From: Candidatus Coprovivens sp.
GTDB lineage: Bacteria > Bacillota_I > Bacilli_A > RF39 > UBA660
Reading direction: 5' to 3'
Assembly (NCBI GenBank): GCA_051892935.1
Contig: JBJFGS010000025.1
Location: forward strand, 80,813 to 144,812
Length of the DNA stretch: 64,000 nt
How positions within the stretch are numbered: position 1 is the stretch's first letter; each line of letters starts with the position of its first letter. The notes under the pieces are model-generated. The model had not been told where the DNA came from, did not search any database, and worked only from the letters and a program-made list of their open reading frames with translations. Shown piece by piece: positions 109 to 54,577 of the stretch. The translations under genes and the position numbers were made by a program.

Positions 109-2295
109 ATGAAAAAAGCAGAGCTACTAATACCTGTTGGAAATCAAGAATGCTTAATAGCAGCAATTCATAATGGAGCCGATGCAGTATACCTTGGTGG
201 AAAAAAATTTGGAGCAAGAGCATATTCAAACAATTTCAATGAAGAAGAAATGGTAAAAGCAATAAAATTATGTCATCTATACGGAGTAAAAATATATGTA
301 ACAGTAAACACAATGATTTATAATGAAGAAATAAAAGAAGTATTAAACTATCTAAATTTTCTTTACATTAATAATGTTGATGCCGTAATAATGCAAGATA
401 ATGGGTTAATAGAACTAGCAAGAAAATTAATACCTAATTTAGAAATACACGTTTCAACACAGGCTCATAATCATAACTCTCCAGCAATACAGCACTACAA
501 AGAAATAGGATGTACTAGAGTAGTATTTGATCGAGAATCATCACTAGAATCAATAGCTAATATAACTGTAGACATAGAAAAAGAAGTCTTTATATATGGA
601 GCACTATGTATTTGCTACTCAGGAAACTGCTTATTTAGCGCCTTAAACGGCGGTAGAAGTGCTAATAGAGGAATGTGTGTAGGTTCATGTCGTCTACCAT
701 ATACTTTATACAAAAATAACCAAAAACAAAAAGAAGGATACTTACTAAGTACAAAAGACTTAAATACACTTCCTAATCTTAAAGAAATACTAGATAAAAA
801 GATTGATTCTTTAAAAGTAGAAGGTCGTATGAAAAGCAAAGAATACGTAGCAATAGTAACAAAAACATTCCGTAAACTAATTGATGACTACTACAACAAA
901 AAAGAAATAATCTTTACACAAGAAGATAATGAAAAACTATTACAAACATATAATAGAGAATTTACAAAAGGATACCTATTTAATGAAGATAATATAATAA
1001 ATAATAAAACATCAAATCACCAAGGAATAAAAATAGGTACAGTAATTGGCGTAAATAACAAAAAAATAACTATTAAGTTAGATAAAGATTTATATCAAAA
1101 CGATGCAATTAGATTTGATAAACCAAATAAAGGTATGTATGTAAATACCCTATATAATAATAAAGGACTACTAGTATCAAATATAGCCAAAGGAAACATA
1201 TGCCAAGTAGACAATAAAGAAAGAATTATGATTAAAGACCTACTAGGCAGTAACGTTCTAAAAACAATAGATACAAAACTTAATGAAGAACTAAATCAAA
1301 TAACAGAAAAGAAAATACCTATCAATATAACATTTAAAGCCAAAATAGACGCAAATAGCACACTTTCCATAACAGATAATACAAATACCATAGAAATAGA
1401 AGGAACAATAACAGAAGAAGCTAAATCATCCCCTATAACAAAAGAACGTATTATAGAACAAATTACTAAACTAGGATCAACACCATTTACACCAAATCAA
1501 ATATTAGTAGATATAGATAGAAATATATTTATTAATATAAAAGAACTAAACGAACTAAGAAGACAAGCAGTAGAAAAACTAATAAATAAAAAAGAAGGAC
1601 ATTCCAAATCAGAAATACACCTTAGCATTCCATCTCCAATAGAAAAAATAAGTAATAATCCTAAAATAAGTATCTTAGTAAGAAACGAAGAACAATTAAA
1701 TATAGCACTAAGAAATAATATAGACTATATATATGTAACAGAAGAAAAAATATACCAAAAATATAAAACATATAAAAATATTTATTTAAGACTAAACAGA
1801 GTAATAGAAAATCACCCAGACTATGAAAACGAAAGACTTCTATGTACAGAATTTGGTTCTATAATAAAATATAATAAAAATAATAGCATAAGAACAGATT
1901 ATTATCTAAATGTTGCAAACGATTATACCATAAACAAACTTATTAAATTAAACAGTAATTCTATTACTTTGAGTGTAGAATTATCAATAGAACAACTAAA
2001 AAATATAAAAAATAAAGAAAAATCAGAAATATTAATATATGGAACACCAGAATGTATGATTATTAAAAATAATATATTTAATATAAAAGAAGAAAATGCC
2101 TACTTATTAGATAATAAGAACAATAAATATCCTATAATATATGATAATTATACTCATATCTTCAATCATACCAAAATTAATTTAATAGATAAAATTCCTA
2201 TATTAAAAAACTTTGGCACATATAGAATAGAATTATTAAACGAAAATATAATAGAAACACAAACAATTATAAATAAAATAAAAGATATGTTATAA
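109..2295 (+). CDS. Peptidase U32 family protein (long form)
   Basis: 728-aa ORF. RBS aaggtga lies 8 nt upstream. N-terminus reads ELLIPVGN...GADAVYLGG. EVFIYGALCICYSGNCLFS nearly matches the U32 signature E-x-F-x2-G-[SA]-[LIVM]-C-x4-G-x-C. Confidence 0.85.
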   Translation: MKKAELLIPVGNQECLIAAIHNGADAVYLGGKKFGARAYSNNFNEEEMVKAIKLCHLYGVKIYVTVNTMIYNEEIKEVLNYLNFLYINNVDAVIMQDNGLIELARKLIPNLEIHVSTQAHNHNSPAIQHYKEIGCTRVVFDRESSLESIANITVDIEKEVFIYGALCICYSGNCLFSALNGGRSANRGMCVGSCRLPYTLYKNNQKQKEGYLLSTKDLNTLPNLKEILDKKIDSLKVEGRMKSKEYVAIVTKTFRKLIDDYYNKKEIIFTQEDNEKLLQTYNREFTKGYLFNEDNIINNKTSNHQGIKIGTVIGVNNKKITIKLDKDLYQNDAIRFDKPNKGMYVNTLYNNKGLLVSNIAKGNICQVDNKERIMIKDLLGSNVLKTIDTKLNEELNQITEKKIPINITFKAKIDANSTLSITDNTNTIEIEGTITEEAKSSPITKERIIEQITKLGSTPFTPNQILVDIDRNIFINIKELNELRRQAVEKLINKKEGHSKSEIHLSIPSPIEKISNNPKISILVRNEEQLNIALRNNIDYIYVTEEKIYQKYKTYKNIYLRLNRVIENHPDYENERLLCTEFGSIIKYNKNNSIRTDYYLNVANDYTINKLIKLNSNSITLSVELSIEQLKNIKNKEKSEILIYGTPECMIIKNNIFNIKEENAYLLDNKNNKYPIIYDNYTHIFNHTKINLIDKIPILKNFGTYRIELLNENIIETQTIINKIKDML

Positions 2296-2312
2296 TAAAA
2301 ATAGGTGATAGT

Positions 2313-2933
2313 ATGATAGATTTAAAAACTTGTAAAACAAAAGATCTAGACGATATATTCTATGCAACAAAAGAAAGTCAAGGAACTGAAAATGCTATAT
2401 CAGCAATTAAATATGTTTTATTCGATGATGATTCTGTATTAGAAGGAAAAAAACCTGAAGATAATAAATACTTATATATATCATCTACAAATAATGCCCG
2501 AAAAAAAGCTATGTTAATGCAACAAGACGATATAACACATATTTTAATAAAGTATTGCATGTCTACGTTTGGCTTAAGAGGAAAAGATTTTATTGTAAAC
2601 GAAGAAGAATTACTATTAAATCTTCAACGTATAGAAAGACTAGAACTAAGTGCTTATGAAATGATTGAACAAATAGCCTATGCAGCAATAGGAAATATTT
2701 ATAATGCCATAGATCTTCTATATGGCAATCAAAATATTTTTAACGAAATAGTAGATTACATGTTATCAGAAAGATATATCTCAGAGTACAAAGATTCACT
2801 TGACAATTTTTCAGGAATTATTGATAATAATAACATTGATTCAGAAAAACGTTTTGCTTTTTATGATGCATATTGCAATATAGACAAAACATTCGAAGAA
2901 ATAAAAAGAAACAATCCAGATTATATAAAATAG
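2313..2933 (+). CDS. Hypothetical protein
   Basis: 206-aa ORF with RBS aggtga upstream. No motif recognised. Confidence 0.6.
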   Translation: MIDLKTCKTKDLDDIFYATKESQGTENAISAIKYVLFDDDSVLEGKKPEDNKYLYISSTNNARKKAMLMQQDDITHILIKYCMSTFGLRGKDFIVNEEELLLNLQRIERLELSAYEMIEQIAYAAIGNIYNAIDLLYGNQNIFNEIVDYMLSERYISEYKDSLDNFSGIIDNNNIDSEKRFAFYDAYCNIDKTFEEIKRNNPDYIK

Positions 2934-2948
2934 AAAAGAGTAGAGTTT

Positions 2949-3413
2949 ATGAAAAAAAATAAAAAAGAACTTGATATAAAAGAAAATTTAAAAGATTTAG
3001 GCAAAAAAAGTAATGGATTTTTATCAGAATTTAAGAAATTTATTGCTCGTGGAAACGTAATGGATCTTGCCGTTGGTGTAATTGTTGGAACAGCATTTAC
3101 AAGTATAGTAACAAGTCTATCGAATAATATTTTACTCCCTTTAATAGGAATTGTTATTGGTGGATTTAATTTTAAAGAACTTTCACTTGAATTTACAGCT
3201 TGGGGAAATCCAGTCACATTAAATTATGGTTTATTTATTCAAAGTACTGTAGACTTCCTAATAACAGCATTTTGTGTTTTCGTAATAGTAAAAGTATTAA
3301 ACAACTTATTTAGTAAAAAAGAAAAAAAAGAAGAACCCAAAGCTCCTGTTAAATCAGATGAAGTTAAGTTATTAGAAGAAATTAGAGATTTATTAAAAGA
3401 ATCAAATAAATAA
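2949..3413 (+). CDS. mscL: Large-conductance mechanosensitive channel MscL
   Basis: FIARGNVMDLAVGVIVGTAF matches the conserved MscL TM1 region. Size (154 aa) and the charged C-terminal helix also fit. Confidence 0.9.
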   Translation: MKKNKKELDIKENLKDLGKKSNGFLSEFKKFIARGNVMDLAVGVIVGTAFTSIVTSLSNNILLPLIGIVIGGFNFKELSLEFTAWGNPVTLNYGLFIQSTVDFLITAFCVFVIVKVLNNLFSKKEKKEEPKAPVKSDEVKLLEEIRDLLKESNK

Positions 3414-3471
3414 AAAGTAGATAGAGTAATATGAACTGAACCCCAAAAGTTGGACAGTTTATAAATAGTTT

Positions 3472-4340
3472 CTAATTAGAGGATTGTAACCTGTAATTCA
3501 CGGGAGACAGTCCTTTTAATTTTACTTTAATTCTATCGTAATTATAATAATAAATATAGTCATCAATCGCTTTTATCAAATCATCTAATGTTTTATAATT
3601 ATCCTCTTGGTCATAAAACATTTCTGTTTTAAGTATACCAAAGAAATTTTCCATCATTCCATTATCCATACTATTTCCTTTTCTAGACATACTTTGTTTT
3701 ATACCATTATTTTTTAATCTTTGCTGATAAGATTGATGTTGATATTGCCATCCTTGATCTGAATGAAATATTAATCCTTCTAAATTATTATTTTTATTAA
3801 ATGCTTTATTTAGCATATCATTAATTTGTTCTAAGTTTGGTGATTTAGAAGTATTATAAGAAATTACTTCGCCATTATATCCATCTAATATTGGTGATAA
3901 ATAACATTTTTCACCACGAAGATTAAATTCAGTAACATCTGTATACCATTTTTCATTTGGTTTGTCTGCATAAAAATTTCTATCGATTAAATTATCGGTA
4001 ATTTTACCTATAGTTCCTTTATATGATGAATATTTTCTTTTATTTCTTTTTAACGGTTTTAAACCTAATTTAACCATTATTCTATAGACTTTTTTATGGT
4101 TAACATTATAACCTTAATTTCTTAATTCTAATGTGATTCTACGATAACCATATCTTTCTTTATTATTAATAAATATTTCCTTTATTTTATCATTATTTCC
4201 TTATTTTTATCATCTTTATCTATTTTAGATAAAGTATAATAATATACTGATTTAGCTAAACCAGATATTTTCAGAAGAATCACTAATGGATATATTAGCC
4301 GAAGTTCACTTACAACATTTACTTTTTCTTCTGTTGTTGA
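3472..4340 (-). pseudogene. IS3 transposase orfB (DDE integrase domain), disrupted
   Basis: The C-terminal 201 aa are intact (WYTDVTEF, HSDQGWQYQ, MENFFGILKTE DDE motifs). The upstream part (VNVVSELRLIYPLV...KERYGYRRITLELRN*GYNVNHKK) needs one extra frameshift and reads through an in-frame TAA. Confidence 0.75.
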
Positions 4341-4825
4341 TTCTTCCTTGCTTGAACAACGGCTCTCAATTTTTTTGAGTATTCTAGCTCCGCTTTTAAA
4401 TATAAATTTTCTTCTTCCAATCTTTTTATTTTTTCTTTATCTGTTTCATTTTCTTTTTTCTTTGTTACTTTAGGCATAGTTGACCGTCCTCGCTTTCGTT
4501 CAACTATATTATAACCATTTTCTATATAATTTTTAATCCAATTTTGTAACATTCCATAACTTAGTAAACTCATATCCAAAGCAACAGACCATACGGCCTC
4601 ACCATTAATTAAAACTCTATCAATAGCTTCTTGTTTTTCGAATCTTGTATGATTTTTATTTTTACCAGCTCTTAAAATATCTATTCCGTGTTTATCAATT
4701 AGTGCAATTAGATAATTTATTAGACATTTTCTAACTTTATACTTATTTGATAAACTGCATATGGACATTCCATTCTTTTTATCATTATACAAATTTATTT
4801 TATCTTCATAAGTTAATTTTGACAT
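4319..4825 (-). CDS. IS3 transposase orfA (HTH)
   Basis: 168-aa ORF with an HTH-like N-terminus and a leucine-zipper-like LEEENLYLKAELE. It ends in an A-rich gaaaaag stretch where IS3 elements normally frameshift into orfB. Confidence 0.8.
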   Translation of the reverse strand: MSKLTYEDKINLYNDKKNGMSICSLSNKYKVRKCLINYLIALIDKHGIDILRAGKNKNHTRFEKQEAIDRVLINGEAVWSVALDMSLLSYGMLQNWIKNYIENGYNIVERKRGRSTMPKVTKKKENETDKEKIKRLEEENLYLKAELEYSKKLRAVVQARKNQQQKKK

Positions 4826-4900
4826 ATAAAAACCTCGTTTCTATTTTGTCCAAGAAACGGGGTTCATATCAATACTCAAATCTACTTTTTTATTTAATAA

Positions 4901-5812
4901 TTAAACTTTTTCTACTAATTTAATAGATTTATCTACTAAGTAATTAATATTTTCATCTCTACATACTGTATCTTTTTTAGTATGAATTTTATCTATATAT
5001 TCAAAATGCTTTCCTCTAATTACTGAACAAACACCTACACCATTAGTAAAATTAGCTTGATCAGATGGATAAATAGCTCCTTTAGTAATCATATCAGTAA
5101 TAACATTATTATCACTAGTATAAACATCTTTTAACAAATCTACATTTTTAATAGCTTTTTTATTAAAAATAAACATAATTTTATCTCCATCAGAAACACA
5201 ATCAAAATTAATTAGTAGCTTTTCTTTCATAACATCCTTATGCTTAGAAGCAAAAGATGCAGAACCTATAAGTCCAGATTCTTCTAAATCAAACAAGATA
5301 AAAGCAACTTTATCTTTTAAATTATCAGGTATTTTATTAATCATTTCTAGAATAGTTAATACACCAGATGTGTTATCATTAACAGTAGATTTATTTGCTG
5401 GACCAAACATTATTAAACAAACAAATAATATTATAATAAAATCATATATAAGTTCTAATAATAACTCATTAATTGGAAACAAAAATGAAATTCCAATAGT
5501 AATAAAAGCAGAAACAAATACAATTAAGAATAATAATAAAATTTGATATAAAACATAAATAAAAATATTTGTAGGTGTAATAAAATTAGGAACAGGTAAT
5601 ACAGCACAAGTATCATAATGAGCCGTAAATAAAACCTTAGCTTTACTAACATCACCAATAACTATATTTCTACTACCAAAATATCCTTTTTCAATTGATA
5701 TGTCATATTTAGAATCTTTTAATTCCTCTTTAACATAACTAATAAACTCATTTTTTTGTTTTTTATTTTTTCTAACCATATACTTATTTAAAATAGTATC
5801 TTTATACTTCAT
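4901..5812 (-). CDS. M28-family metallopeptidase with internal TM segments
   Basis: FTAHYDT and FILFDLEESGLIGS metal-ligand motifs. Start moved to the ATG at 5812 (MKYKDTIL), preceded by ggagg. The longer track ORF starts inside the upstream terminator. Confidence 0.7.
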   Translation of the reverse strand: MKYKDTILNKYMVRKNKKQKNEFISYVKEELKDSKYDISIEKGYFGSRNIVIGDVSKAKVLFTAHYDTCAVLPVPNFITPTNIFIYVLYQILLLFLIVFVSAFITIGISFLFPINELLLELIYDFIIILFVCLIMFGPANKSTVNDNTSGVLTILEMINKIPDNLKDKVAFILFDLEESGLIGSASFASKHKDVMKEKLLINFDCVSDGDKIMFIFNKKAIKNVDLLKDVYTSDNNVITDMITKGAIYPSDQANFTNGVGVCSVIRGKHFEYIDKIHTKKDTVCRDENINYLVDKSIKLVEKV

Positions 5813-5825
5813 ATAAACTTCCTCC

Positions 5826-5849
5826 AAAAAAAGAGCAATCATTGCTCTT
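5826..5849 (-). terminator. Rho-independent terminator
   Basis: On the minus strand: aagagca-atgat-tgctctt followed by ttttt. It overlaps the stop of the 56-aa ORF. Confidence 0.6.
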
Positions 5850-6018
5850 AATAATATATTAACATTCCAAAAATAGATATCAAAGAACCTAAAATCATAA
5901 CAAGAGCCATAATCCAACCAACAATTTTCATTACTAATTTTCTTTTTTGATTGGCAGTCATTTTTTTCTTTTTAGGTTTAATTTTTTCTTCGACTTCATC
6001 TTTAATTTTTTTTGCCAT
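5848..6018 (-). CDS. Small tail-anchored membrane protein (56 aa), absent from the ORF track
   Basis: MAKKIKDEVEEKIKPKKKKMTANQKRKLVMKIVGWIMALVMILGSLISIFGMLIYY. Strong RBS agaggtga 6 nt upstream; lysine-rich N-terminus plus one C-terminal TM helix. Confidence 0.55.
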   Translation of the reverse strand: MAKKIKDEVEEKIKPKKKKMTANQKRKLVMKIVGWIMALVMILGSLISIFGMLIYY

Positions 6019-6102
6019 TTAAAATCACCTCTAACTATATAAACTAAATATAATTTATCATATTTTTCACCTTAAGTAAATAAATTTAATCAGGTGAAAA
6101 AT

Positions 6103-6669
6103 ATGATAAGAATAATATCGAAGTATAAAAATATCTATATATTTCTAATAACACTAGCTATAATCGGTGCAATAAGTGGTTATCTATATTATCAGATTCA
6201 ACCAACTAAAACTAAAGAAGAAATAAAAACAAACGTCAACATCAAAGAAAGCATAAATTCAAGAGTAAATAACTTATCTAAAAACTTAAAAAATAATATA
6301 AAAATATTCTTTTATTCACTATTAATAATACCTATAATAATAAATATCTTTAATATATTTTATAAGCCTTTCGAAATAGGTTTTATTTTTAATTTATTAT
6401 CAAAATATAATATTAAACTATCATTAATATATACAAACATATACTTAAATATTCCTTTTATAATAAGTATCATCCTAACTAGAATAAGTATAACTTTCAT
6501 ATATAATATAATAAAATACATTATAATAAGAGATAATAAATCAAAAGTATTAATAAAAAATACATTTAAAAAATACATTATAATAATAATTATTTCAATA
6601 CTATACGATATATTAATTATCATCACTAGTCCTTATATAAACAGATATTTAATGACATTTATTAAATAA
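6103..6669 (+). CDS. Polytopic membrane protein, SpoIIM-like architecture
   Basis: ATG at 6103 preceded by aggtga. About 188 aa with an N-terminal TM helix and several C-terminal ones. The SpoIIM resemblance is by size and topology only. Confidence 0.5.
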   Translation: MIRIISKYKNIYIFLITLAIIGAISGYLYYQIQPTKTKEEIKTNVNIKESINSRVNNLSKNLKNNIKIFFYSLLIIPIIINIFNIFYKPFEIGFIFNLLSKYNIKLSLIYTNIYLNIPFIISIILTRISITFIYNIIKYIIIRDNKSKVLIKNTFKKYIIIIIISILYDILIIITSPYINRYLMTFIK

Positions 6670-6700
6670 TAATGTTATAATTAATAATAGAGGTGATGAT

Positions 6701-8368
6701 ATGGAAGCACTAGCTATCAGCGCAGCAAATTTAAATACCATAGAAGAAAACTTAGGAGCAGTTGCCAAAGAATTATCTGGAGTCATAAATAATGTTTCAA
6801 CAGTAAATGATCAAGTAAATAAAGTAGAATCAAAAGTAGAAACACTTAATGACGAAGTAAAAAGCCTAGTTAAAGAAATAAGAGAAACTACTATAATAAC
6901 AAACGCTCGTCAATCTATTATGTATAACAACTCAGAAATAGAAAAAAAATATGGATACTACGATAAAGTAAGAAGAACAACTGAATCCCTATTAGATGCT
7001 ATTGAAAACTCATCAATAAGAAAAAATTCTCTTCAAGAACTAAATCAAGAAATTATTTTAAATAATCCAAATTACTGGTTATCTTCTGCTTTAGCTGCAT
7101 TATCATCATGGTTATTAAACGATCGTACAAATACCGAAAAAGAATTAAATAACGCATTAAAAAAAGATAATAAAAAAACAAGTCTTTTCTTCTGTTTGAT
7201 AAATTTAAAATTACAAAGAACTCAAACATCTTTAAATTGGTTAAATAAATATCTATCTCTTCAAAATCCAACTAAATTAGATAAAGATTTTATAACTATC
7301 CTTGATTTAATTGCAACAGGTACTTTTGGTGATGAAGCCAAAAATACAGTATTAAAAAAAATAAATTTCTGGTTTAATAGTCTTAACTCTGAAAAAGAAA
7401 TACAAAACGAACAAAAAAGCATATGGAGCAATTTTTTAAAAACAAAACAAGATACCGATATAAGAATGCCAAATTTAGAAAACTATTCCCCAGATGTATT
7501 CAAACTAAAAAACAACTTAGCAATAACATCAACTTATATAAATGTCCTTAATCATTTAGAAAACATTATAAAAAGCGACACATCAAATAAAGGAATAAAC
7601 GAAATAATAAATAATTTAATATACGAATACGAATCAAATGAACAAATATATCAAAAAGACAATTTAAAAAATAATCTTATTATAGAATGTAATGGTAATA
7701 GAGAAGAAGCCGAAAAACTATTTAAAAAACAAGAAAGTATTTATAACAATGAAACCAATCTTCTAACCCTTTTAAGCAACATTATAATATATAAAAATTC
7801 ATACAGTATTAGTAATGAAACACAAAAAATAGCTTTATCACTAATGAAAGAATACATCCAAAACGCTATTGAAGAAATGAATGAAGAAATAAGTAAAGAT
7901 AACATCAATATATCAATAGACAAATTTAAAACAACAACCAAAGATGGAAGTAATTTAAAAGAAGCAAAACAAGACTTAGAAGCTTATCTAAGTACGATAT
8001 TTAATGAAGAAGATAAAGATTTAATAATTACTCTTTTAATAATAAATATTCTAGGAATAATAGGAATATTCATAACTTTAAACAGCAAAATTCTTTGTAC
8101 ATTATTAATAATAATAATTCTATTAGGAAATTTCATTTTACTATTTAAATTAAATCAAAGAAATAGGCTAAGAACAAGAGAAAAAAATAAATTGAGAATC
8201 AATATAGGAAATATCCTTGAAAGAGTCTTAGCAGAAACAACAGATTACAACAACTTAATGTTAGAAGACAACGAACATTATATAGAATTAAAAACATATC
8301 TAAACAATCTAGAAGCTGAAAACTACACAAAAAGTAACGACGAAAGAAATATTAATATAGGAGAATAA
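6701..8368 (+). CDS. Coiled-coil protein with two C-terminal TM helices (unknown function)
   Basis: 555 aa; RBS agaggtga. N-terminal heptad-like NLNTIEENLGAVAKELSGVINNVSTVNDQVNKVESKVETLNDEVKSLVKEIRE. TM pair LIITLLIINILGIIGIFITL and LCTLLIIIILLGNFILLFKL. Confidence 0.75.
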   Translation: MEALAISAANLNTIEENLGAVAKELSGVINNVSTVNDQVNKVESKVETLNDEVKSLVKEIRETTIITNARQSIMYNNSEIEKKYGYYDKVRRTTESLLDAIENSSIRKNSLQELNQEIILNNPNYWLSSALAALSSWLLNDRTNTEKELNNALKKDNKKTSLFFCLINLKLQRTQTSLNWLNKYLSLQNPTKLDKDFITILDLIATGTFGDEAKNTVLKKINFWFNSLNSEKEIQNEQKSIWSNFLKTKQDTDIRMPNLENYSPDVFKLKNNLAITSTYINVLNHLENIIKSDTSNKGINEIINNLIYEYESNEQIYQKDNLKNNLIIECNGNREEAEKLFKKQESIYNNETNLLTLLSNIIIYKNSYSISNETQKIALSLMKEYIQNAIEEMNEEISKDNINISIDKFKTTTKDGSNLKEAKQDLEAYLSTIFNEEDKDLIITLLIINILGIIGIFITLNSKILCTLLIIIILLGNFILLFKLNQRNRLRTREKNKLRINIGNILERVLAETTDYNNLMLEDNEHYIELKTYLNNLEAENYTKSNDERNINIGE

Positions 8369-8370
8369 CT

Positions 8371-8547
8371 ATGAACGAAGAACAATTTAAAAAACTAGAT
8401 ATAGGCAATGAAATAAAAATAAAACCAGCTATTATTAATCTTCCAGAAAAAAAAGATAAAGATAATAAAAATGATGAAAAAATAATAGTCGAACTTCCAA
8501 CATGGAACATAGAACCACCTATAGAAATAAAAAGAGGCGAACAATGA
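8371..8547 (+). CDS. Small protein (58 aa), absent from the ORF track
   Basis: MNEEQFKKLDIGNEIKIKPAIINLPEKKDKDNKNDEKIIVELPTWNIEPPIEIKRGEQ. RBS aggag lies 8 nt upstream, inside the end of the previous gene. Its TGA overlaps the next ATG (caATGAca). Confidence 0.6.
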   Translation: MNEEQFKKLDIGNEIKIKPAIINLPEKKDKDNKNDEKIIVELPTWNIEPPIEIKRGEQ

Positions 8548-8978
8548 CATACGAAGAATGGTTAAATACAATTGAAGAATTAAAACACCCAAACCTAAGC
8601 ATAGATAATCTAAATAAAATAAAAAACACCTCCTTAAATGAAAATATTAATCCTTTATTAATTCCTAAAATAGAAAATTTAGTTAAAGAAAGATTAAACA
8701 ACAGCATAAATAAAATAATTTTAAATCTTAGTGAAATATTTAGCGATATAAACTACTTAGATCTAACACTACTAAATTTTAAAAAAGAAATAAACTATAT
8801 ATTAGAGATAATCTCTATAAAACAATTACCAGAAGAAAAACAAAAAGAATTAAAAGACATGATAAAAGCCGAAAGTAATAATGTAATAGAAATTCTAAAT
8901 AAAGAAGCACAAAAGCTTGATTACACAGGTTCCTTATCATCAATAATAAATAACTATAGAATAAAATGGAGTGAATAA
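8544..8978 (+). CDS. Hypothetical protein (144 aa)
   Basis: Start placed at the ATG at 8544 (MTYEEWLNTIEEL), which forms an ATGA overlap with the upstream small ORF. The track start at 8502 lacks an RBS. Confidence 0.65.
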   Translation: MTYEEWLNTIEELKHPNLSIDNLNKIKNTSLNENINPLLIPKIENLVKERLNNSINKIILNLSEIFSDINYLDLTLLNFKKEINYILEIISIKQLPEEKQKELKDMIKAESNNVIEILNKEAQKLDYTGSLSSIINNYRIKWSE

Positions 8979-8979
8979 A

Positions 8980-10476
8980 ATGAATTACAATGAAGCAAAA
9001 GAATACTTAAAAAGATATTTAAAAGCAAGAATACCAGTTATTATAATTAATACAGCAGAAAAAAATCGTTCATTAAGATTAATTAAAGAAATTGCCAATG
9101 AAGCAAATATGAATTTTAATTTATATCAAATGTCTCAAGGAATATCTGATTTAAAAACAAATACAATAAAAAGCGAAGATAAAACAATAATGAGTGCCAT
9201 TGATTACATTGTAAACGAAATAAGACACCAAGAAAATAGTAATTTTATCATAAGTGATATATCAGATATATACGAATCAACCACCATTTCAAGGTACCTT
9301 GTAGATGTAATAGAAAAAGCAGAAACCATGTCTGGAGTAATAGTTTTAGTTACAAACGAACCAATTTGGTCAAATATTCAAAGATTAGGAATAACAATCA
9401 AACTAAACTACCCTACAGAATCAGAATTAAAAGAAACAATAATGAACACTATTTCTCCTTATAAAAACCAAATTGAAATAGAATGGGATGAAATAGACTA
9501 TGTAAATGCTGCAACATATCTTCAAGGATTAAGTGAAATGGAAGTAAAAAATATTATCTCATCATTAATTGTAAAAGGTTCAATAAAAAAAGAAGATTTA
9601 AAAGAACTAAAATATGCAAAACAAACTTTATTTAATGAAATAGCAGGGTTAGAAGCTATTGAAGTAGATGATGACTTTCAAATAGCTGGACTAGATAATT
9701 TAAAAGAATGGTTATATGAAAAGAAAACTTTAATGGATCCAGCAAAAAAAGAAGAGCTATCAAAAAGAGGAATTGCTGCTCCTCGAGGAATTCTACTAAC
9801 TGGAGTACCAGGTTGCGGAAAAAGTCTTTGTTCAAAAGCAACAGCAAGTATCTTTAATATTCCCTTATATAGACTTGATTTAGCAACTGTTCAAGGTCAA
9901 TACGTTGGTCAATCAGAAAAACAACTCAAAGAAGCTCTAGATACAGCAGAATACGTTTCCCCTTGTGTTCTTTGGATTGATGAAATAGAAAAAGGATTAA
10001 ACGATTCAAATTCTAGTGTTACATCAAAAATGATTGGCCAATTCCTATTTTGGTTACAAGAATGTGAAAAGCCCGTATTCGTAATAGCATCAGCTAATAG
10101 CGTTGAATCACTACCACCAGAACTAATAAGAAAAGGACGTTTTGATGAAATATTCTTCGTTGATTTACCAAACGCATCCGAAAGAAAACAACTACTAAAA
10201 TTATATTCAAATAAATATTTAAAAGTAGAAATAAGTGAAGAACTAAAAAACAAACTAGTCTCAATAACCGAAGGATTCGCAAGCGCTGATATTGAGGCAA
10301 CAATTCGTAATATAGCATATAAATTAATTGCCAATAAAGATATCGAATTAACAGAAAGACTTATAATAGAAGAATTATCAAAAGTAGTATCACTATCCAA
10401 AACAAATCCAGAAAAAATAGAAAAAATACGAAAATGGGGACAAGAAAGAGCAACCAAAGCATCAAAAGATATATAG
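8980..10476 (+). CDS. AAA+ ATPase (classical clade) with a degenerate N-terminal AAA-like half
   Basis: Walker A GVPGCGKS, Walker B VLWIDEIEK, second-region/Arg-finger PPELIRKGRFDEIFFVDLP. The N-terminal ~260 aa (PVIIINTAEKNRS...VIVLVTNEP) lack a P-loop. ATG at 8980 is preceded by ggag. Confidence 0.85.
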   Translation: MNYNEAKEYLKRYLKARIPVIIINTAEKNRSLRLIKEIANEANMNFNLYQMSQGISDLKTNTIKSEDKTIMSAIDYIVNEIRHQENSNFIISDISDIYESTTISRYLVDVIEKAETMSGVIVLVTNEPIWSNIQRLGITIKLNYPTESELKETIMNTISPYKNQIEIEWDEIDYVNAATYLQGLSEMEVKNIISSLIVKGSIKKEDLKELKYAKQTLFNEIAGLEAIEVDDDFQIAGLDNLKEWLYEKKTLMDPAKKEELSKRGIAAPRGILLTGVPGCGKSLCSKATASIFNIPLYRLDLATVQGQYVGQSEKQLKEALDTAEYVSPCVLWIDEIEKGLNDSNSSVTSKMIGQFLFWLQECEKPVFVIASANSVESLPPELIRKGRFDEIFFVDLPNASERKQLLKLYSNKYLKVEISEELKNKLVSITEGFASADIEATIRNIAYKLIANKDIELTERLIIEELSKVVSLSKTNPEKIEKIRKWGQERATKASKDI

Positions 10477-10484
10477 GTGATAAA

Positions 10485-11312
10485 ATGAAAGAAAAAAAAG
10501 ACATCAAATATCTTGTCAAAAGTAACAATTACATAGGACTATTATTCTTCGCGCTAGTACTAGCATCACTATTATATATATTAAAAAAAGAAGAAACAAC
10601 ATTTCAAAACATCGAACCAACTATGAATGAAATAACAAACTTACAAGAACAACCTAAAGAAATAACAGAGCCAACAAAAGAAATATCAGATCTCCAAAAC
10701 TATCTAAATACCGGAGATCCAAACACATTTAATATATATCAATCACATTATATATTAAATGAAAAAATAACAAAAGATAACCTTAATAACGAAACTCTTC
10801 TATATATGGCATATAAATATATAGAAAAAACAACCGACTTCACAAACTATATAAACTACCTGGGTTGTGATGAAGCTCAAATCATAGGACTAGATAATCA
10901 AATAACACAATGTGGTGGAACCAAAATAAATGCTACTACTTATACGATGAACAGATATATTACAAAAGAATTATTAAATAAAACAATCAAAAAAATATTT
11001 AACATAAATCTAACTCAATATACAAACTTTTATACAAGTGAAGATAATCTATGTTACTATTTAAAAGACGAATTTTTATGTGTTTCCCATCAAACAAATA
11101 AAATAACAAATTATGGCGAAAAAGAATTTCAAAAAGCATACAAATATAATAATAAAATAGAAATTATAGAAAAATATCATTTCATAAATAATGGAATATA
11201 TTACAAAGGTTTTAATAGCCAAGAAATAGGTGAAGGATATTATAAAAGTACCTTCAATAAAATAAATGGTTCATATTACTGGGAAAGCACAGAGTATTAC
11301 GAAATAAACTAG
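10485..11312 (+). CDS. Membrane-anchored protein (N-terminal TM), unknown function
   Basis: ATG at 10485 follows aggtga. TM helix IGLLFFALVLASLLYIL, then a ~240-aa Asn/Tyr-rich domain. Confidence 0.7.
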   Translation: MKEKKDIKYLVKSNNYIGLLFFALVLASLLYILKKEETTFQNIEPTMNEITNLQEQPKEITEPTKEISDLQNYLNTGDPNTFNIYQSHYILNEKITKDNLNNETLLYMAYKYIEKTTDFTNYINYLGCDEAQIIGLDNQITQCGGTKINATTYTMNRYITKELLNKTIKKIFNINLTQYTNFYTSEDNLCYYLKDEFLCVSHQTNKITNYGEKEFQKAYKYNNKIEIIEKYHFINNGIYYKGFNSQEIGEGYYKSTFNKINGSYYWESTEYYEIN

Positions 11313-11331
11313 TTATTTTAACTAGTTTTTT
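11306..11331 (+). terminator. Rho-independent terminator of the 6701-11312 cassette
   Basis: 9-bp stem aaactagtt / aactagttt with loop atttt, followed by a T run. It overlaps the stop codon. Confidence 0.8.
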
Positions 11332-11372
11332 CTTGATATTTCCTTGACATATCAAGTGTCTAGCAATATAAT
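11332..11372 (+). promoter_or_regulatory. Consensus SigA-type promoter overlapped by a palindromic operator
   Basis: TTGACA (11344-11349), 17-nt spacer, TATAAT (11367-11372). Perfect 8-bp inverted repeat cttgatat...atatcaag (11332-11356) brackets the -35 box. Confidence 0.7.
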
Positions 11373-11408
11373 TAAGATGTAAAATATAAAAGAAAGGAAT
11401 TGGTAAAA

Positions 11409-12176
11409 ATGCGTAAATTAAATGAATTATTTCAAGAATTAGGAATATCTAAAGTAAGATTAGCAAAATATTTAGGAGTTTCAAGACAAATGGTCTATAA
11501 CTATCTAGAACTAAATGATATAAATAAATGGCCAAAAGAAAAAAAATTATTACTATTTAAATTATTAGATATAAATGATAGTAACGCAATAGAAGATATT
11601 CAAGTAACAACAGACTACTTAATGAATGTTGAAAGTAGATTAAATCAAGGAGTAAAAAGTACGGCTGAAATGGATAATGGTTTAAACTTCAAAGGTTTAA
11701 ATAAAGAATCACAAGTACTCCTAAGCGATATAACTTATCTTCTAAAAGAAAAATTAAGTGATGAGACAAAAGAAGAAAACTACTATGCTATTTTATATCT
11801 ATATCATCTACTACAATCTTTAGATAATGTTCCAGAAATTAAATATATATTTGGTTATATGAGTAAAACAACAGGATTTACCAATCCAGAAGAATATAAA
11901 TTTCAAGAAGATAAACAATTTATTTTTGAAGGTATCCTATACTCAGCTTTAACATTATACAACAACGGAGGAGCATCTCGTTCTAAGTTAGCCGAATCAC
12001 ATAAACGTTTTGTACAAGAAATAGAACAAAAAAATGAAGAAAAACTTTCTCGTACACAACAACTAAATACAATAAAAATTCAAGCACTTAAAGAACTAGG
12101 ATTCACAGAAATAAACGAAAGCAATGCTGCCGAAGTATTTGAAAAAATAGCAGAAATTCAATCAAGAAAGGTTTAG
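11409..12176 (+). CDS. HTH-domain transcriptional regulator
   Basis: N-terminus MRKLNELFQELGISKVRLAKYLGVSRQMVYNYLE is a typical helix-turn-helix. The remaining ~200 aa were not recognised. Confidence 0.7.
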   Translation: MRKLNELFQELGISKVRLAKYLGVSRQMVYNYLELNDINKWPKEKKLLLFKLLDINDSNAIEDIQVTTDYLMNVESRLNQGVKSTAEMDNGLNFKGLNKESQVLLSDITYLLKEKLSDETKEENYYAILYLYHLLQSLDNVPEIKYIFGYMSKTTGFTNPEEYKFQEDKQFIFEGILYSALTLYNNGGASRSKLAESHKRFVQEIEQKNEEKLSRTQQLNTIKIQALKELGFTEINESNAAEVFEKIAEIQSRKV

Positions 12177-12191
12177 CAATAAACCTTTTTT
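12167..12191 (+). terminator. Rho-independent terminator
   Basis: Stem aaaggttt / aaaccttt with loop agcaat, followed by a T run. Confidence 0.7.
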
Positions 12192-12209
12192 ATAATAAAA
12201 GGAGTATAT

Positions 12210-12791
12210 ATGAAAAAGAAAATAATAATATTATCTAGCTTACTATTATTAATTAGTGGATGTAAAGAAAAAGAAATAGAATGTGAAGAGCAAAAAGAAG
12301 AAACACTAATAAAATATAATAATACAAAAATAACCGAAAAAGATGCTCTAGAAGAAACAAAAGAATATATCTTTCCAGTTATATTTGAAAAAGTAATAGG
12401 AGATATTTTAACAGAAGAAATGAAGGATAAACTCGAAGATGGAAATAACTACGCAGAAGAAACAATAGAAGAACTAAAAACTTACTATGAAGATGAACTT
12501 GAAAAAGCAATAATATCCTATACATCATATAAAACAATAGAAGAATATAAAAGATCAATTTTAATAAGTTATTTACAAGAAGAATATTTTAAAGAATATA
12601 TTAGCAATAAAGAAAAAATAGATTACAACGAAATTACCGATGATAATTTAACTAATTATTATAAAAAATATTATGTTGAGAGTATAAACGACTTATTAAA
12701 AAAATATAATGTAACATTCGAAAATAAAGATTATAAAAAGATGTATGAAAAATATATAGAAGAAAAAGAAACTTACTATAATAATAACTAA
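12210..12791 (+). CDS. Lipoprotein, unknown function
   Basis: Signal peptide with lipobox LLLLISGC; acidic Glu/Lys/Tyr-rich mature part; RBS aaaggag. Confidence 0.75.
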   Translation: MKKKIIILSSLLLLISGCKEKEIECEEQKEETLIKYNNTKITEKDALEETKEYIFPVIFEKVIGDILTEEMKDKLEDGNNYAEETIEELKTYYEDELEKAIISYTSYKTIEEYKRSILISYLQEEYFKEYISNKEKIDYNEITDDNLTNYYKKYYVESINDLLKKYNVTFENKDYKKMYEKYIEEKETYYNNN

Positions 12792-12812
12792 AGCACATTT
12801 TGTGCTTTTTTA
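12791..12812 (+). terminator. Rho-independent terminator
   Basis: aagcac-atttt-gtgctt followed by tttttt. Confidence 0.8.
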
Positions 12813-13004
12813 ATAATTTAAAGTGTCCTATTAGCATAATAAGAATAGAGAAGGGGAAGATAAAGAAATTAAAGAAAACATTCTTAAAAATAGCTAAAAA
12901 CGCCCAAAAATATATAACATAAATAAAATTAATAAGTATGAAAAAATAATAATTAAAAAATAAAAAGATCAAACTCATAAACATAACATTTGTTCGCTAG
13001 CAAA

Positions 13005-13049
13005 AATTAAAAAACTCCCCCTATTCAAAAATGCAAAAATTAATAGGGG
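13005..13049 (-). terminator. Candidate minus-strand terminator
   Basis: On the minus strand: cccctatt - 16-nt loop - aatagggg, then gag + tttttt. The only G/C-containing hairpin with a T run in this gap; the loop is large. Confidence 0.45.
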
Positions 13050-13102
13050 ACTCGAATTAAAAAAATACAAATAAAACATTCAAAAAAAAGATACAATTAT
13101 TC

Positions 13103-13410
13103 AATGAGATAATGAAACTAATCATATAATTAAATCTCGAATCCTAATTTGAAATAACCACAGTCCATAGATTGATAATTTATCAATTATTTAAATGTCG
13201 ATTCCAATTTCATAATACAGATTACGAAATATTAATTCCACGAGATGATAAATTGTTCATCTTTTAAAATCTCGATGCCGATTTAAAACAATAAATAAGA
13301 AACGAGACGATGAAGTATTCATCAAAAGAAATCTCGATTCCTAATTTAAAAGTTTAAATAGAAATCAAGCTAAAGAACTAATAAGCTAACAGAAATTCGT
13401 TTCCAATAAA
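13103..13410. repeat. Array of five degenerate ~61-74-bp hairpin units
   Basis: Cores aAATCTCGAwtCCnAATTT at 13132-13150, 13193-13210, 13267-13284, 13329-13347, plus a degenerate one at 13393-13408. Each is preceded by a nested inverted repeat, e.g. cgagat-gatga...tcatc-...-atctcg (13241-13274) and cgaga-gatgaa-gta-ttcatc-...-tctcg (13303-13336). Confidence 0.7.
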
Positions 13411-13607
13411 TGCCAAACCAAAAACGAACAAATGTATAACATATAAGAAAATAATAATTTTAAATTTTTTCTTAAATTAAAGATTAATTAAATAATAATT
13501 ATATAATATATATTAATAAAATAAAACTAAAGAAAAATAACATAATAAAGAAATAAATTAACAAAATAATTTTCTATATATAAATGAATTTTTAAATTAA
13601 ATATTTA

Positions 13608-13635
13608 ACTTCGTATAATATATATTATGTTAACC
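13608..13635. other. dif: dif-like XerC/XerD chromosome-dimer resolution site
   Basis: ACTTCGTATAA-TATATA-TTATGTTAACC. This matches 24 of 28 positions of B. subtilis dif as I recall it (ACTTCCTAGAATATATATTATGTAAACT). The right arm matches the E. coli XerD arm TTATGTTAAAT at 9 of 11. It sits at the gene-orientation switch, 1.7 kb from a Xer gene. Confidence 0.75.
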
Positions 13636-13718
13636 AATTAAATATTTTATAAAAAATAAATACTATTATTCATAATAATTATATTTATAAAGTTTAAAAA
13701 AGCTCATATTAAAAACTT

Positions 13719-14447
13719 CTATAAAGATATGATAATTATTATAATTCCAAATATAATCCCCATAATAAGCCATTTATAACATTTATAAGAGATTCCTTCT
13801 TTTAAAATTTTTAAAACACTAAGACTAATCATAATACCACCAGTAATTATTAGAATAATACTCATAATAAAATCATTAATAAAATTATTTAAAAAAATAA
13901 TACTAAATAAAGCACCAAAAACTTCCCCCATAGAACTAATAATAGTCATAAAAAAAGCTTTCCCCCTACTTCCAGTACTATAATAAATAGGTAAACTAAT
14001 ACATATTCCTTCCGGAATATTATGAATCATAATAATAAAACTCATCTTCAAACCTAAAGAAAGATTATTACTACTAGTTAAAGCACAAATAACTCCTTCA
14101 GGAACATTATGAACAAATAAACTAAGCATACTAAGAATACCTATCTTATATAAGCTACTCTCCCCTACAATATTTCTATCAATAACAAAAACAATTATAT
14201 AACCAATCAATAATAAAATTAAACCATACACAAAAATACCAAATATACTAAAATCATTATTAACCAATAATAAACCATCAGGAATTAATTCTATAATAGA
14301 GATTAAAAACATAACTATAAAAGATAACCCCATTGAAAAAGAGATTAACTTATTTTTATATTTTACATCAATAAATAATAGTATATTTCCTAATATAGTA
14401 GCAAATCCAGCTATAAAAGTTATAATTAAAGGATAAATATTTTTCAT
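13719..14447 (-). CDS. zupT: ZIP-family divalent metal transporter (ZupT-like)
   Basis: 242-aa polytopic protein with the paired HNVPEG and HNIPEG motifs of ZIP transporters. Confidence 0.8.
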   Translation of the reverse strand: MKNIYPLIITFIAGFATILGNILLFIDVKYKNKLISFSMGLSFIVMFLISIIELIPDGLLLVNNDFSIFGIFVYGLILLLIGYIIVFVIDRNIVGESSLYKIGILSMLSLFVHNVPEGVICALTSSNNLSLGLKMSFIIMIHNIPEGICISLPIYYSTGSRGKAFFMTIISSMGEVFGALFSIIFLNNFINDFIMSIILIITGGIMISLSVLKILKEGISYKCYKWLIMGIIFGIIIIIISL

Positions 14448-54361: not shown

Positions 54362-54577
54362 CTATCTTTTTTTGGCTTTTTTCTTTTCATCAGAAGTGGT
54401 ATAAGAAGTTACGTTACTATGAACCATTTCTGCAAAAAGAGAGTTTGATATTACTTCATTCATATCTTCACCATCCAAAAGCGAATCAACAAATTGTAAT
54501 TCATCATTTTCATCATACCTTTTAACAATTTTCAATCCTTCTTTTAAAGAAATCAACTTTTCTTTTTCATTACTCAT
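54362..54577 (-). CDS. Small protein (71 aa) coupled to the giant ORF
   Basis: Its ATG overlaps the giant ORF's TGA (ATGA). Acidic body with a KKKAKKR tail. Confidence 0.6.
   Translation of the reverse strand: MSNEKEKLISLKEGLKIVKRYDENDELQFVDSLLDGEDMNEVISNSLFAEMVHSNVTSYTTSDEKKKAKKR

Follow-up and report, generated by a model that had tools for sequence, protein, structure and literature searches.

The window analysed here, 64,000 nucleotides (nt) of contig JBJFGS010000025.1 from a metagenome-assembled genome (MAG) of Candidatus Coprovivens (Bacilli) with a GC content of ∼25%, contains at positions 6701–11312 five closely spaced genes, A to E, the fourth of which encodes a tandem AAA+ ATPase. 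Four of the five, A-B-C-D, usually accompanied elsewhere by a further family that we call F, are one co-inherited unit. At the protein level, D and A have 100% identity to NCBI entries of Candidatus Coprovivens. The genes of the window and the terminator that closes the operon are as follows.

6701–8368, + strand: gene A, 555 amino acids (aa)
8371–8547, + strand: gene B, 58 aa
8544–8978, + strand: gene C, 144 aa
8980–10476, + strand: gene D, 498 aa, the ATPase
10485–11312, + strand: gene E, 275 aa
11303–11331, + strand: terminator-like hairpin with 13-nt arms and a U-run, closing the operon and overlapping the stop codon of E

A first-pass annotation made from the DNA letters had described five tightly packed + strand genes with a shared terminator at 11306–11331, and direct reading of the junctions bore out both the coordinates and the packing. 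The TAA stop codon of A (8366–8368) is followed after a 2-nt gap by the ATG of B at 8371, with GGAG upstream. B and C overlap in an ATGA, C starting at 8544, which gives it its length of 144 aa, and B stopping at 8547. The stop codon of C (8976–8978) is separated by 1 nt from the ATG of D at 8980, and that of D (10474–10476) by 8 nt from the ATG of E at 10485, which is preceded by AGGTG. A Shine-Dalgarno-like sequence lies before each gene start, and the genes are translationally coupled. With its start at 8980, D is 498 aa long, equal to its closest homologues, and not ∼499 aa as had been given. The terminator also stood, with a hairpin energy of −11.7 kcal/mol and a z-score of −5.1 against shuffled sequences.

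The comparison with other genomes started from two distant ATPase representatives (42 and 36% identical to D), on whose contigs the ATPase gene is preceded in each case by the same trio of ∼550–590, 60–80, and 150–180 aa. One genome per GTDB species was scanned with the ATPase alignment, yielding 80 loci, and the six-frame open reading frames (ORFs) of 82 loci were searched with hidden Markov models (HMMs) from three seed loci. A-B-C-D was found, in the same order and on the same strand, in 28 of 28 loci (L001–L028) with an ATPase at least 36% identical to D; in these the ATPase is 36–49% identical, and A and C are always upstream on the same strand (two of the 28, L013 and L015, are cut off upstream). 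The same HMM search of six-frame ORFs detected no homologue of A or C in the 54 loci L029–L082, where the ATPase is 30–35% identical. Wherever C was found it lies directly upstream of the ATPase (24 loci by the first HMM, L027 and L028 by ORF reading, and L083–L090), and outside the window the order of the module is F-A-B-C-D or A-B-C-D-F. The hosts belong to six phyla, Bacillota, Fusobacteriota, Pseudomonadota, Bacteroidota, Actinomycetota, and Cloacimonadota, those in the Bacillota being Lachnospiraceae, Clostridia, Streptococcus, Shimazuella, Planomicrobium, Acidaminococcus, and Christensenellaceae, and across the six phyla the cassette ATPase is 40–49% identical. Co-conservation elsewhere, set beforehand as the test of the proposed five-gene unit, thus holds for A-B-C-D across six phyla, but the unit is not the five genes proposed; E is absent from the other cassette loci, where the usual fifth gene is F.

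Library scans agreed with the initial view that only the ATPase has recognizable motifs, D being the sole cassette protein of the window with library matches. It matches PF00004 over residues 274–398 with 104.9 bits (gathering cut-off 21.2), also matches the Cdc48, PAN, FtsH, and CdvC models but below their family cut-offs, and is matched over its full length by phrog_8638, a PHROG family of unassigned function (E = 9e-90). Its fold, predicted with high confidence, has two AAA-fold domains in one chain, the type-II tandem architecture. The first domain (D1, approximately residues 1–230) has the AAA fold without a P-loop, with INTAEKNRS at the Walker A position. The second (D2) has a Walker A motif, GVPGCGKS, at residues 275–282 (nt 9802–9825), a pore loop, YVG, at 308–310 (nt 9901–9909), a Walker B motif, LWIDEIEK, at 331–338 (nt 9970–9993), and arginine fingers, RKGR, at 384–387 (nt 10129–10140) within RKGRFDE (residues 384–390); the Walker A and B, pore-loop, and RKGR positions are invariant in an alignment of 85 sequences. 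D is a classical AAA family member of type-II architecture, its D1 lacking a P-loop and its D2 intact, classical, and equipped with a pore loop; the first-pass annotation was right in calling it a tandem AAA protein, D1 degenerate and D2 active and of the classical clade, and in the placing of the motifs.

The family to which D belongs is very large (3755 representatives of ∼500 aa at E < 1e-30), and many relatives align with D end to end at 30–36% identity. Three ATPase representatives (P0252, P0329, and P0361) were rejected, as they share only D2 with the query and have no cassette. At three of the loci without the cassette (L039, L047, and L075; ATPase 32–35% identical) the tandem AAA gene follows a gene for a small protein whose CxxxCxxC motif is like that of radical-SAM activases; further upstream, as read from the sequence, there is at least one membrane protein with a helix-hairpin-helix end of the ComEA type. 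The arrangement is apparently a different recurring context of the same ATPase family.

Protein A is membrane-anchored and has a coiled coil and a TPR-like domain. An AlphaFold model computed from a 100-sequence alignment (predicted local distance difference test score, pLDDT, 83; predicted template modelling score, pTM, 0.67) begins with a helix or coiled coil of ∼100 residues (2–103, nt 6704–7009), whose profile gave only weak coiled-coil matches (Lpp, DotF, IncA, and syntaxin). Modelled TPR-like helical repeats follow at approximately residues 108–250 (nt 7022–7450), and after them come a helical domain and a small β-hairpin. Next is a transmembrane (TM) hairpin at residues 441–482 (nt 8021–8146), with a 4-residue loop in the model, the hydrophobic segments being placed at 441–459 and 464–482 by sequence and at 439–458 and from 463 onward by the model. 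A long basic helix of ∼70 residues then continues to about residue 535. Given the two TM segments and the basic stretch after the second, both termini are predicted to be cytoplasmic. A had been described as a coiled-coil protein ending in two TM helices; the coiled coil and both helices are there, although the protein does not end with them. Its most conserved motifs, YWLxxALxALxxW and KTSLFFxL, sit in the TPR-like part, and most of the near-invariant residues (Arg-91, Arg-92, Tyr-125, Trp-126, Leu-127, Trp-137, Arg-170, Arg-173, Trp-180, and Tyr-184) fall between the end of the first helix and that part, with further ones (Leu-303, Leu-306, Glu-314, Gly-332, and Ala-337) in the helical domain that follows.

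One A homologue matches DUF4231 below threshold (E = 5.7e-4), whereas A of the window does not. DUF4231 belongs to the SLATT superfamily and is described as having a pair of TM helices and, C-terminal to them, a helical region in the cytoplasm (PMC9812332); we treat the relation of A to SLATT/DUF4231 as a lead, not as membership. A fold search of BFVD with A returned generic coiled-coil and TPR matches only, no ESCRT-III fold was detected in A, and neither A nor C has sequence similarity to ESCRT-III. A phage origin of A was considered and rejected, there being one match among 50,697 phage records and one in IMG/VR. Deeper word-indexed searches for A homologues, even with a 31-sequence profile, recovered almost only Coprovivens-like sequences.

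The small protein B is disordered apart from a C-terminal motif, its N-terminal part being variable and of low complexity. In the window the motif is LPTWNIEPPIEIKRG, at residues 42–56 (nt 8494–8538), and across loci it reads [LF]-P-x-W-[DSNE]-x-x-P-P-x-x-h-h-R-R-[RK], with P, W, and P invariant in all 27 sequences. In 27 of 27 loci the space between A and C holds a small ORF with this motif 14–24 residues from its C terminus, B being 52–140 aa long (median 63), and by chance the motif occurred once in the ∼6900 ORFs of the 54 non-cassette loci. In three Clostridia loci (L005, L006, and L008) B carries a zinc ribbon. C is predicted to be helical from its sequence and has a conserved N-terminal TYxEW motif, in which, among 28 aligned sequences, Tyr-3 is invariant and Trp-6 at least 90% conserved. 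Many homologues among L009–L027 end in a disordered linker and a conserved tail of the GRRxIhF type (G/RRR-x-I-h-F); the window, Clostridia, and Streptococcus versions lack this tail. An extended C of 383 aa, with a TM segment in it, is encoded at L011.

The F proteins, ∼150–170 aa long, have a conserved N terminus, MP[RK]PxL...LRKxRSxxY, and invariant Asp, Cys, His, His, Glu, and Tyr residues; to judge by the Cys/His/His pattern, F may be a small hydrolase or have a zinc site. Their conserved N terminus and the end motifs of B and C mean that all three have conserved peptides at their termini, of the sort to which TPR grooves and AAA+ adaptors or pores typically bind. F is present in 23 of the 28 cassette loci (for example L005:8597–9088, L010:3971–4489, and L001:2261–2701), directly upstream of A in Actinomycetota, Pseudomonadota, Bacteroidota, Cloacimonadota, and two Bacilli (Shimazuella and Planomicrobium), and downstream of D in Clostridia, Streptococcus, Fusobacterium, and Acidaminococcus. 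HMMs of F found nothing in the window, which disposes of the idea that E, or the upstream neighbor U described below, is a divergent F. They also found nothing in the Coprovivens-like loci L085–L088, nor in L002 and L028, each of which has three A paralogues instead.

Neither the A, C, and F families nor B of the window has a Pfam match, and profile searches of the PDB with A, C, and F found nothing. NCBIfam (June 2026) holds no model for the partner proteins of the window, nor for A, C, and F members from three phyla. No description of the partner set A-B-C-(F) was found in Pfam, NCBIfam, PADLOC 2.0, the PDB, or the searchable literature; the literature covered is incomplete, and DefenseFinder was not run. 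A known defence system was rejected as an identification, since the PADLOC match is limited to the generic AAA domain (IetA) and no matching system appears in the searchable literature.

Mobile elements carry the unit, and it passes between phyla. A tblastn search with A homologues found a complete A-B-C-D-F at 9674–14257 of the 14,257-bp Streptococcus satellite phage Javan368 (L083, MK448457.1), at the cargo end opposite the integrase and downstream of regulator and replication genes. Streptococcus sp. ST16 has a copy 96% identical to that cassette (L007:3898–9203), directly preceded by the last 213 nt of the integrase gene of that satellite, and appears to hold a decayed satellite that lost its core and kept the cassette cargo. 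F-A-B-C-D is also present on Komagataeibacter plasmids of 26 and 39 kb, in the smaller of which it lies between an IS3 transposase and an integrase, among toxin-antitoxin genes (RelE/ParE and HicAB). A Comamonas megaplasmid carries the cassette as well, and on the single IMG/VR contig that has it, it adjoins two large serine recombinases.

The flanks of the 28 loci have no conserved context, their 145 proteins falling into 133 Pfam families. Matches to defence models there include type I and type IV restriction enzymes, caspase (twice), HerA, PycTIR, MADS mad3 and mad8, PDC-M33B and C, capH, WYL, and PbeA. Proteins with a terminal zinc ribbon (CxxC...CxxC) account for 12 of 322 cassette-locus ORFs versus 2 of 596 control ORFs (Fisher p = 1.3e-4), the association being seen in the flanks of L002, L004, L006, L010, L027, and L028. 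Most clearly in L002, L010, and L027, a TM segment comes after the ribbon and leads to an outside domain (TcaA-like, TonB_C, or lectin-like).

The neighborhood of the cassette in the window contains the following further features.

6103–6669, + strand: gene U, a 188-aa polytopic membrane protein with 4–5 hydrophobic segments, ending 31 nt before A
6652–6681, + strand: promoter-like ATGACA-18-TGnTATAAT (extended −10) with 11 of 12 consensus matches
11332–11342 and 11346–11356: 11-nt inverted repeat overlapping the −35 element of the next promoter, a putative operator
11344–11372, + strand: perfect TTGACA-17-TATAAT, the sigma-70-type promoter of the helix-turn-helix (HTH) gene
11409–12176 (ATG 11409), + strand: HTH protein of 255 aa, a separate transcription unit, with weak HTH matches at residues 9–42

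As no terminator-like site lies in the 31 nt between U and A, the transcription unit may hold six genes, and U is possibly co-transcribed with A. The site at 6652–6681 is a consensus match only, and such sites are no commoner in this region than in shuffled sequence. E has one N-terminal TM segment (residues 15–33), confirming the N-terminal anchor ascribed to it, and a Cys-containing, presumably extracytoplasmic domain; it has no match in Pfam, PHROG, PADLOC, NCBIfam, or the PDB. As neighbors of the cassette, E, U, and the HTH gene are specific to the genus Coprovivens, without a homologue in any other cassette locus among the 82 loci searched. An HTH regulator with an operator-bearing promoter had been noted immediately downstream, and a perfect promoter with an inverted repeat over its −35 element is indeed present, but no link of the gene to the cassette could be demonstrated; outside the genus it is absent beside the cassette at every locus.

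In Candidatus Coprovivens excrementavium the locus is syntenic, with a U32 peptidase gene, a 206-aa gene, MscL, a 56-aa gene, U-A-B-C-D-E, and the HTH gene, and further downstream Zip and a Xer-like recombinase. The proteins of the window are identical to those of this species at the following levels: U, 46%; A, 64%; B, 48%; C, 49%; D, 82%; E, 57.5%; HTH, 91%, the highest in the neighborhood; and, in the flank, U32 peptidase, 64.5%, the 206-aa protein, 70%, and MscL, 61.5%. Synteny and these identities indicate that the cassette is vertically inherited in Coprovivens, with B and C its fastest-evolving parts, diverging within the genus much faster than D (48–49% versus 82% identity). From the high identity of the HTH protein and from its perfect promoter, with an inverted repeat lying across it, the gene would appear to encode an important regulator that controls its own expression and is not related to the cassette. 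A-B-C-D are all that remains in a more distant Bacilli MAG (L087), where A is 51% identical; counterparts of E, U, and the HTH gene are missing, and the flanks are different, Abi_2, HtrA, and DUF5684 lying upstream and SIR2 downstream.

Between MscL and the cassette of the window, on the − strand at 3472–5917, lie an IS3-family element and a gene for an M28-peptidase membrane protein (4901–5917) that are absent from the syntenic C. excrementavium locus and look like a strain-specific insertion. The IS3 parts are a 168-aa orfA-like ORF (4319–4825) and a 201-aa rve-domain ORF (3472–4077); the shortness of the latter and the 240-nt gap between the two indicate that the element may be decayed.

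We compared the cassette with the closest described systems. Like the type-II classical proteins Cdc48/p97/VAT, Rix7/NVL, and Pex1/Pex6, D has two stacked AAA-fold domains, and 448–462 of its 498 residues superpose on Rix7, NVL, and Pex1. Its best sequence matches are the D2 domains of VAT and p97, with which it has in common the classical Walker A and B motifs, an aromatic pore loop, and the arginines of the second region of homology (SRH). It differs from Cdc48 in having a D1 without a P-loop, no Cdc48-type N-terminal substrate/adaptor domain (the model contains no extra N domain), and unrelated partners; TIGR01243, the model for Cdc48/p97 proper, aligns with D2 only and gives 116.8 bits against a cut-off of 802.65. 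Vps4-ESCRT-III and CdvABC are similar in that a classical AAA ATPase acts on membrane-associated helical polymers and recognizes short terminal peptides, the B tail being comparable by analogy to MIT-interacting motifs (MIMs). The MIT domain itself is absent from D, which reaches 88 bits against the 650-bit cut-off of the CdvC model and has no adjacent ESCRT-III, Snf7, or PspA gene.

The sole defence-library match is to IetAS, D2 matching IetA in PADLOC (E = 3e-27) and IteA in NCBIfam (69.7 bits). This match covers only the generic AAA domain (residues 258–493) and falls far short of the 510-bit cut-off; IetA has one AAA domain, and the cassette contains neither an IetS subtilase partner nor a protease gene. 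By model cut-offs or partner requirements, D is not a member of the Cdc48, Vps4/CdvC, or IetA families. The C-terminal module of A, in which a cytoplasmic helix comes after the TM hairpin, has the layout described for the SLATT effectors of CBASS (cyclic oligonucleotide-based anti-phage signaling systems), retrons, and others, but A has ∼440 extra N-terminal residues (the coiled coil and the TPR-like part) and no linked nucleotide-signal generator. The CBASS Trip13/HORMA pair (Cap6/Cap7) and NSF-SNAP-SNARE offer an analogy only, as the cassette has no HORMA, SNAP, or SNARE homology and its coiled-coil matches are generic.

The nearest described systems are the operons in which bacterial PspA/Snf7 genes adjoin ATPases with two AAA domains and an inactive N-terminal copy (Ravi et al. 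2024, PMC11237479), but the ESCRT-III-like partner is absent here. The likeness is in the architecture of the ATPase and in a proposed membrane-proximal remodelling role. No PspA, Snf7, or ESCRT-III gene occurs in the cassette of the window or in any cassette locus, and the cassette ATPases are a distinct branch, at least 36–40% identical to D, with partners of their own. There is a fair chance that the cassette, an AAA+ remodeller with membrane and adaptor partners that make up four new families (A, B, C, and F), is a genuinely new system.

We consider it probable that the products of A, B, C, and D work together on membrane protein A. We infer the binding partners, the direction of control, and a defence role as follows. 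D would be a hexameric substrate-threading unfoldase, brought by B and C to oligomers of A, with the B tail and the C termini docking into the TPR-like groove of A or onto D1. In such an assembly the invariant C-terminal peptide of B may serve as a ligand of the TPR-groove type and C as a small helical adaptor, and these fast-evolving proteins could be the sensing or labile parts. A would be held in the membrane by its two-TM hairpin and cytoplasmic helix, resembling SLATT-type effectors, and ATP-driven remodelling by D would set whether it is inert or membrane-perturbing. D might thread or remodel A itself, or B and C on A, and the output would be changed membrane integrity. The logic would be analogous to that of Trip13 resetting HORMA in CBASS or of Vps4 disassembling ESCRT-III. 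The role would be in inter-genomic conflict, most likely abortive-infection-type anti-phage defence, carried as cargo of plasmids and phage satellites, and the Coprovivens module would have lost F, gained the neighbors U and E, and become a stably inherited chromosomal locus.

The reading that we put first, tentatively and at somewhat under an even chance, is of a mobile conflict or defence module, fixed in Coprovivens, in which an AAA+ protein controls a membrane effector, abortive infection being included under this heading. Membrane remodelling, extraction, secretion, and defence had all been entertained in the first-pass annotation. Carriage on mobile elements, patchy spread across phyla, and the fast evolution of B and C favor conflict or defence among these, and no ESCRT-III or PspA partner was found. 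The varied flanks with their defence genes, as well as Abi_2 near the L087 copy and the three A paralogues at L002 and at L028, count as further signs of mobility and conflict. In a more specific and more doubtful form of the proposal, F-A-B-C-D could be an unrecognized anti-phage or conflict class, in which a type-II AAA unfoldase switches a TPR-bearing two-TM effector, guided by a disordered protein with an invariant C-terminal peptide, and of which Coprovivens has a domesticated derivative without F.

Several observations weigh against a conflict or defence module. In the phage and plasmid collections searched the cassette is rare, occurring in one of 50,697 phage records, in four of 72,556 plasmid records (among them a Fusobacterium replicon of 2.1 Mb), and on a single IMG/VR contig, and a limited search with five queries found a recombinase within 7 kb at only one of the 28 genomic loci (L007). 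PADLOC-DB v2.0.0 has no match for A, B, C, E, or U of the window, and the hint of a SLATT relation is a single sub-threshold match among 31 A sequences. F, present in most versions, is missing here, and the Coprovivens version may for that reason work differently. The Coprovivens locus, in a genome of ∼1 Mb, keeps its synteny between species amid housekeeping genes (U32 peptidase, MscL, and Zip), and the cassette diverges at about the rate of the housekeeping genes in its flanks, a pattern that looks like that of a maintained cellular function.

The stable retention of the locus in a 1-Mb genome makes an envelope role the main rival, although we consider it unlikely. On this account D extracts, disassembles, or recycles A oligomers in membrane-stress repair, remodelling, or membrane-protein quality control, as PspA/ESCRT-III-plus-AAA systems or Msp1/FtsH do. 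Vertical inheritance among housekeeping genes in a reduced genome fits such a role, as do the tandem AAA proteins with an inactive N-terminal copy reported beside bacterial PspA/Snf7 (PMC11237479), the enrichment of TcaA-like and other zinc-ribbon membrane proteins beside the cassette, and MscL nearby in the window. However, a core envelope function would not usually be distributed so sporadically across phyla, with copies on small plasmids and on a phage satellite, and B and C evolve fast.

Improbable, by our estimate, is a pure addiction module of the toxin-antitoxin kind, in which A is a membrane toxin neutralized by D with labile B and C, and loss of the element releases A. The small plasmids carry the cassette among RelE/ParE and HicAB modules, it is the part retained in the decayed satellite, and B is antitoxin-like in being short, disordered, and fast-evolving. 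Most copies are chromosomal, though, with a recombinase near only the one revealed by the limited search, five genes and 4.6 kb are large for a system of this type, and the mechanism overlaps with that of abortive infection, from which it is inseparable in silico.

A slimmer chance attaches to a machine for the biogenesis or turnover of single-pass membrane proteins with cytoplasmic zinc-ribbon tails, whose substrate in the window would be E. The excess of ribbon proteins at cassette loci and the ribbon carried by B in three Clostridia loci argue for it, and E, which is translationally close to D, has a fitting topology, with a single TM segment between a short cytoplasmic tail and a domain on the outside. 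Against this, the association is seen in only ∼8 of the 28 loci, the count was regex-based on crude ORF calls, and E has neither a zinc ribbon nor a homologue elsewhere. That the five genes are chance neighbors or mis-called ORFs, of which AT-rich sequence yields many, is refuted for A–D and hardly credible at all, since the gene order is conserved across six phyla, A and D have high-confidence folds, and the conservation of all five within the genus (48–82%), and of A–D far beyond it, marks them as real genes.

If the proposed conflict or defence module is borne out, bacteria pass among themselves, on plasmids and phage satellites, a new system of several genes with a Cdc48-like unfoldase at its center, a motor known above all from protein quality control in eukaryotes and archaea, and one lineage of gut Bacilli has retained it in a genome of ∼1 Mb. 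The catalogue would gain four uncharacterized protein families and a very sharply defined peptide motif, and the system would offer a tractable bacterial model of an AAA+ motor controlling a membrane-embedded effector. The hypothesis is directly testable because the cassette occurs in cultivable organisms, namely Streptococcus oralis (together with the satellite Javan368), Fusobacterium, Stenotrophomonas, Variovorax, Comamonas, Streptomyces, Planomicrobium, and Flavobacterium.

Elsewhere in the window, genes are mostly on the + strand from 109 to 12791 and almost all on the − strand from ∼13.7 kb onward, and the GC skew is strongly negative (approximately −0.3 to −0.5) from ∼14 to 62 kb. By far the largest ORF, of 2331 aa, lies on the − strand at 54574–61569.

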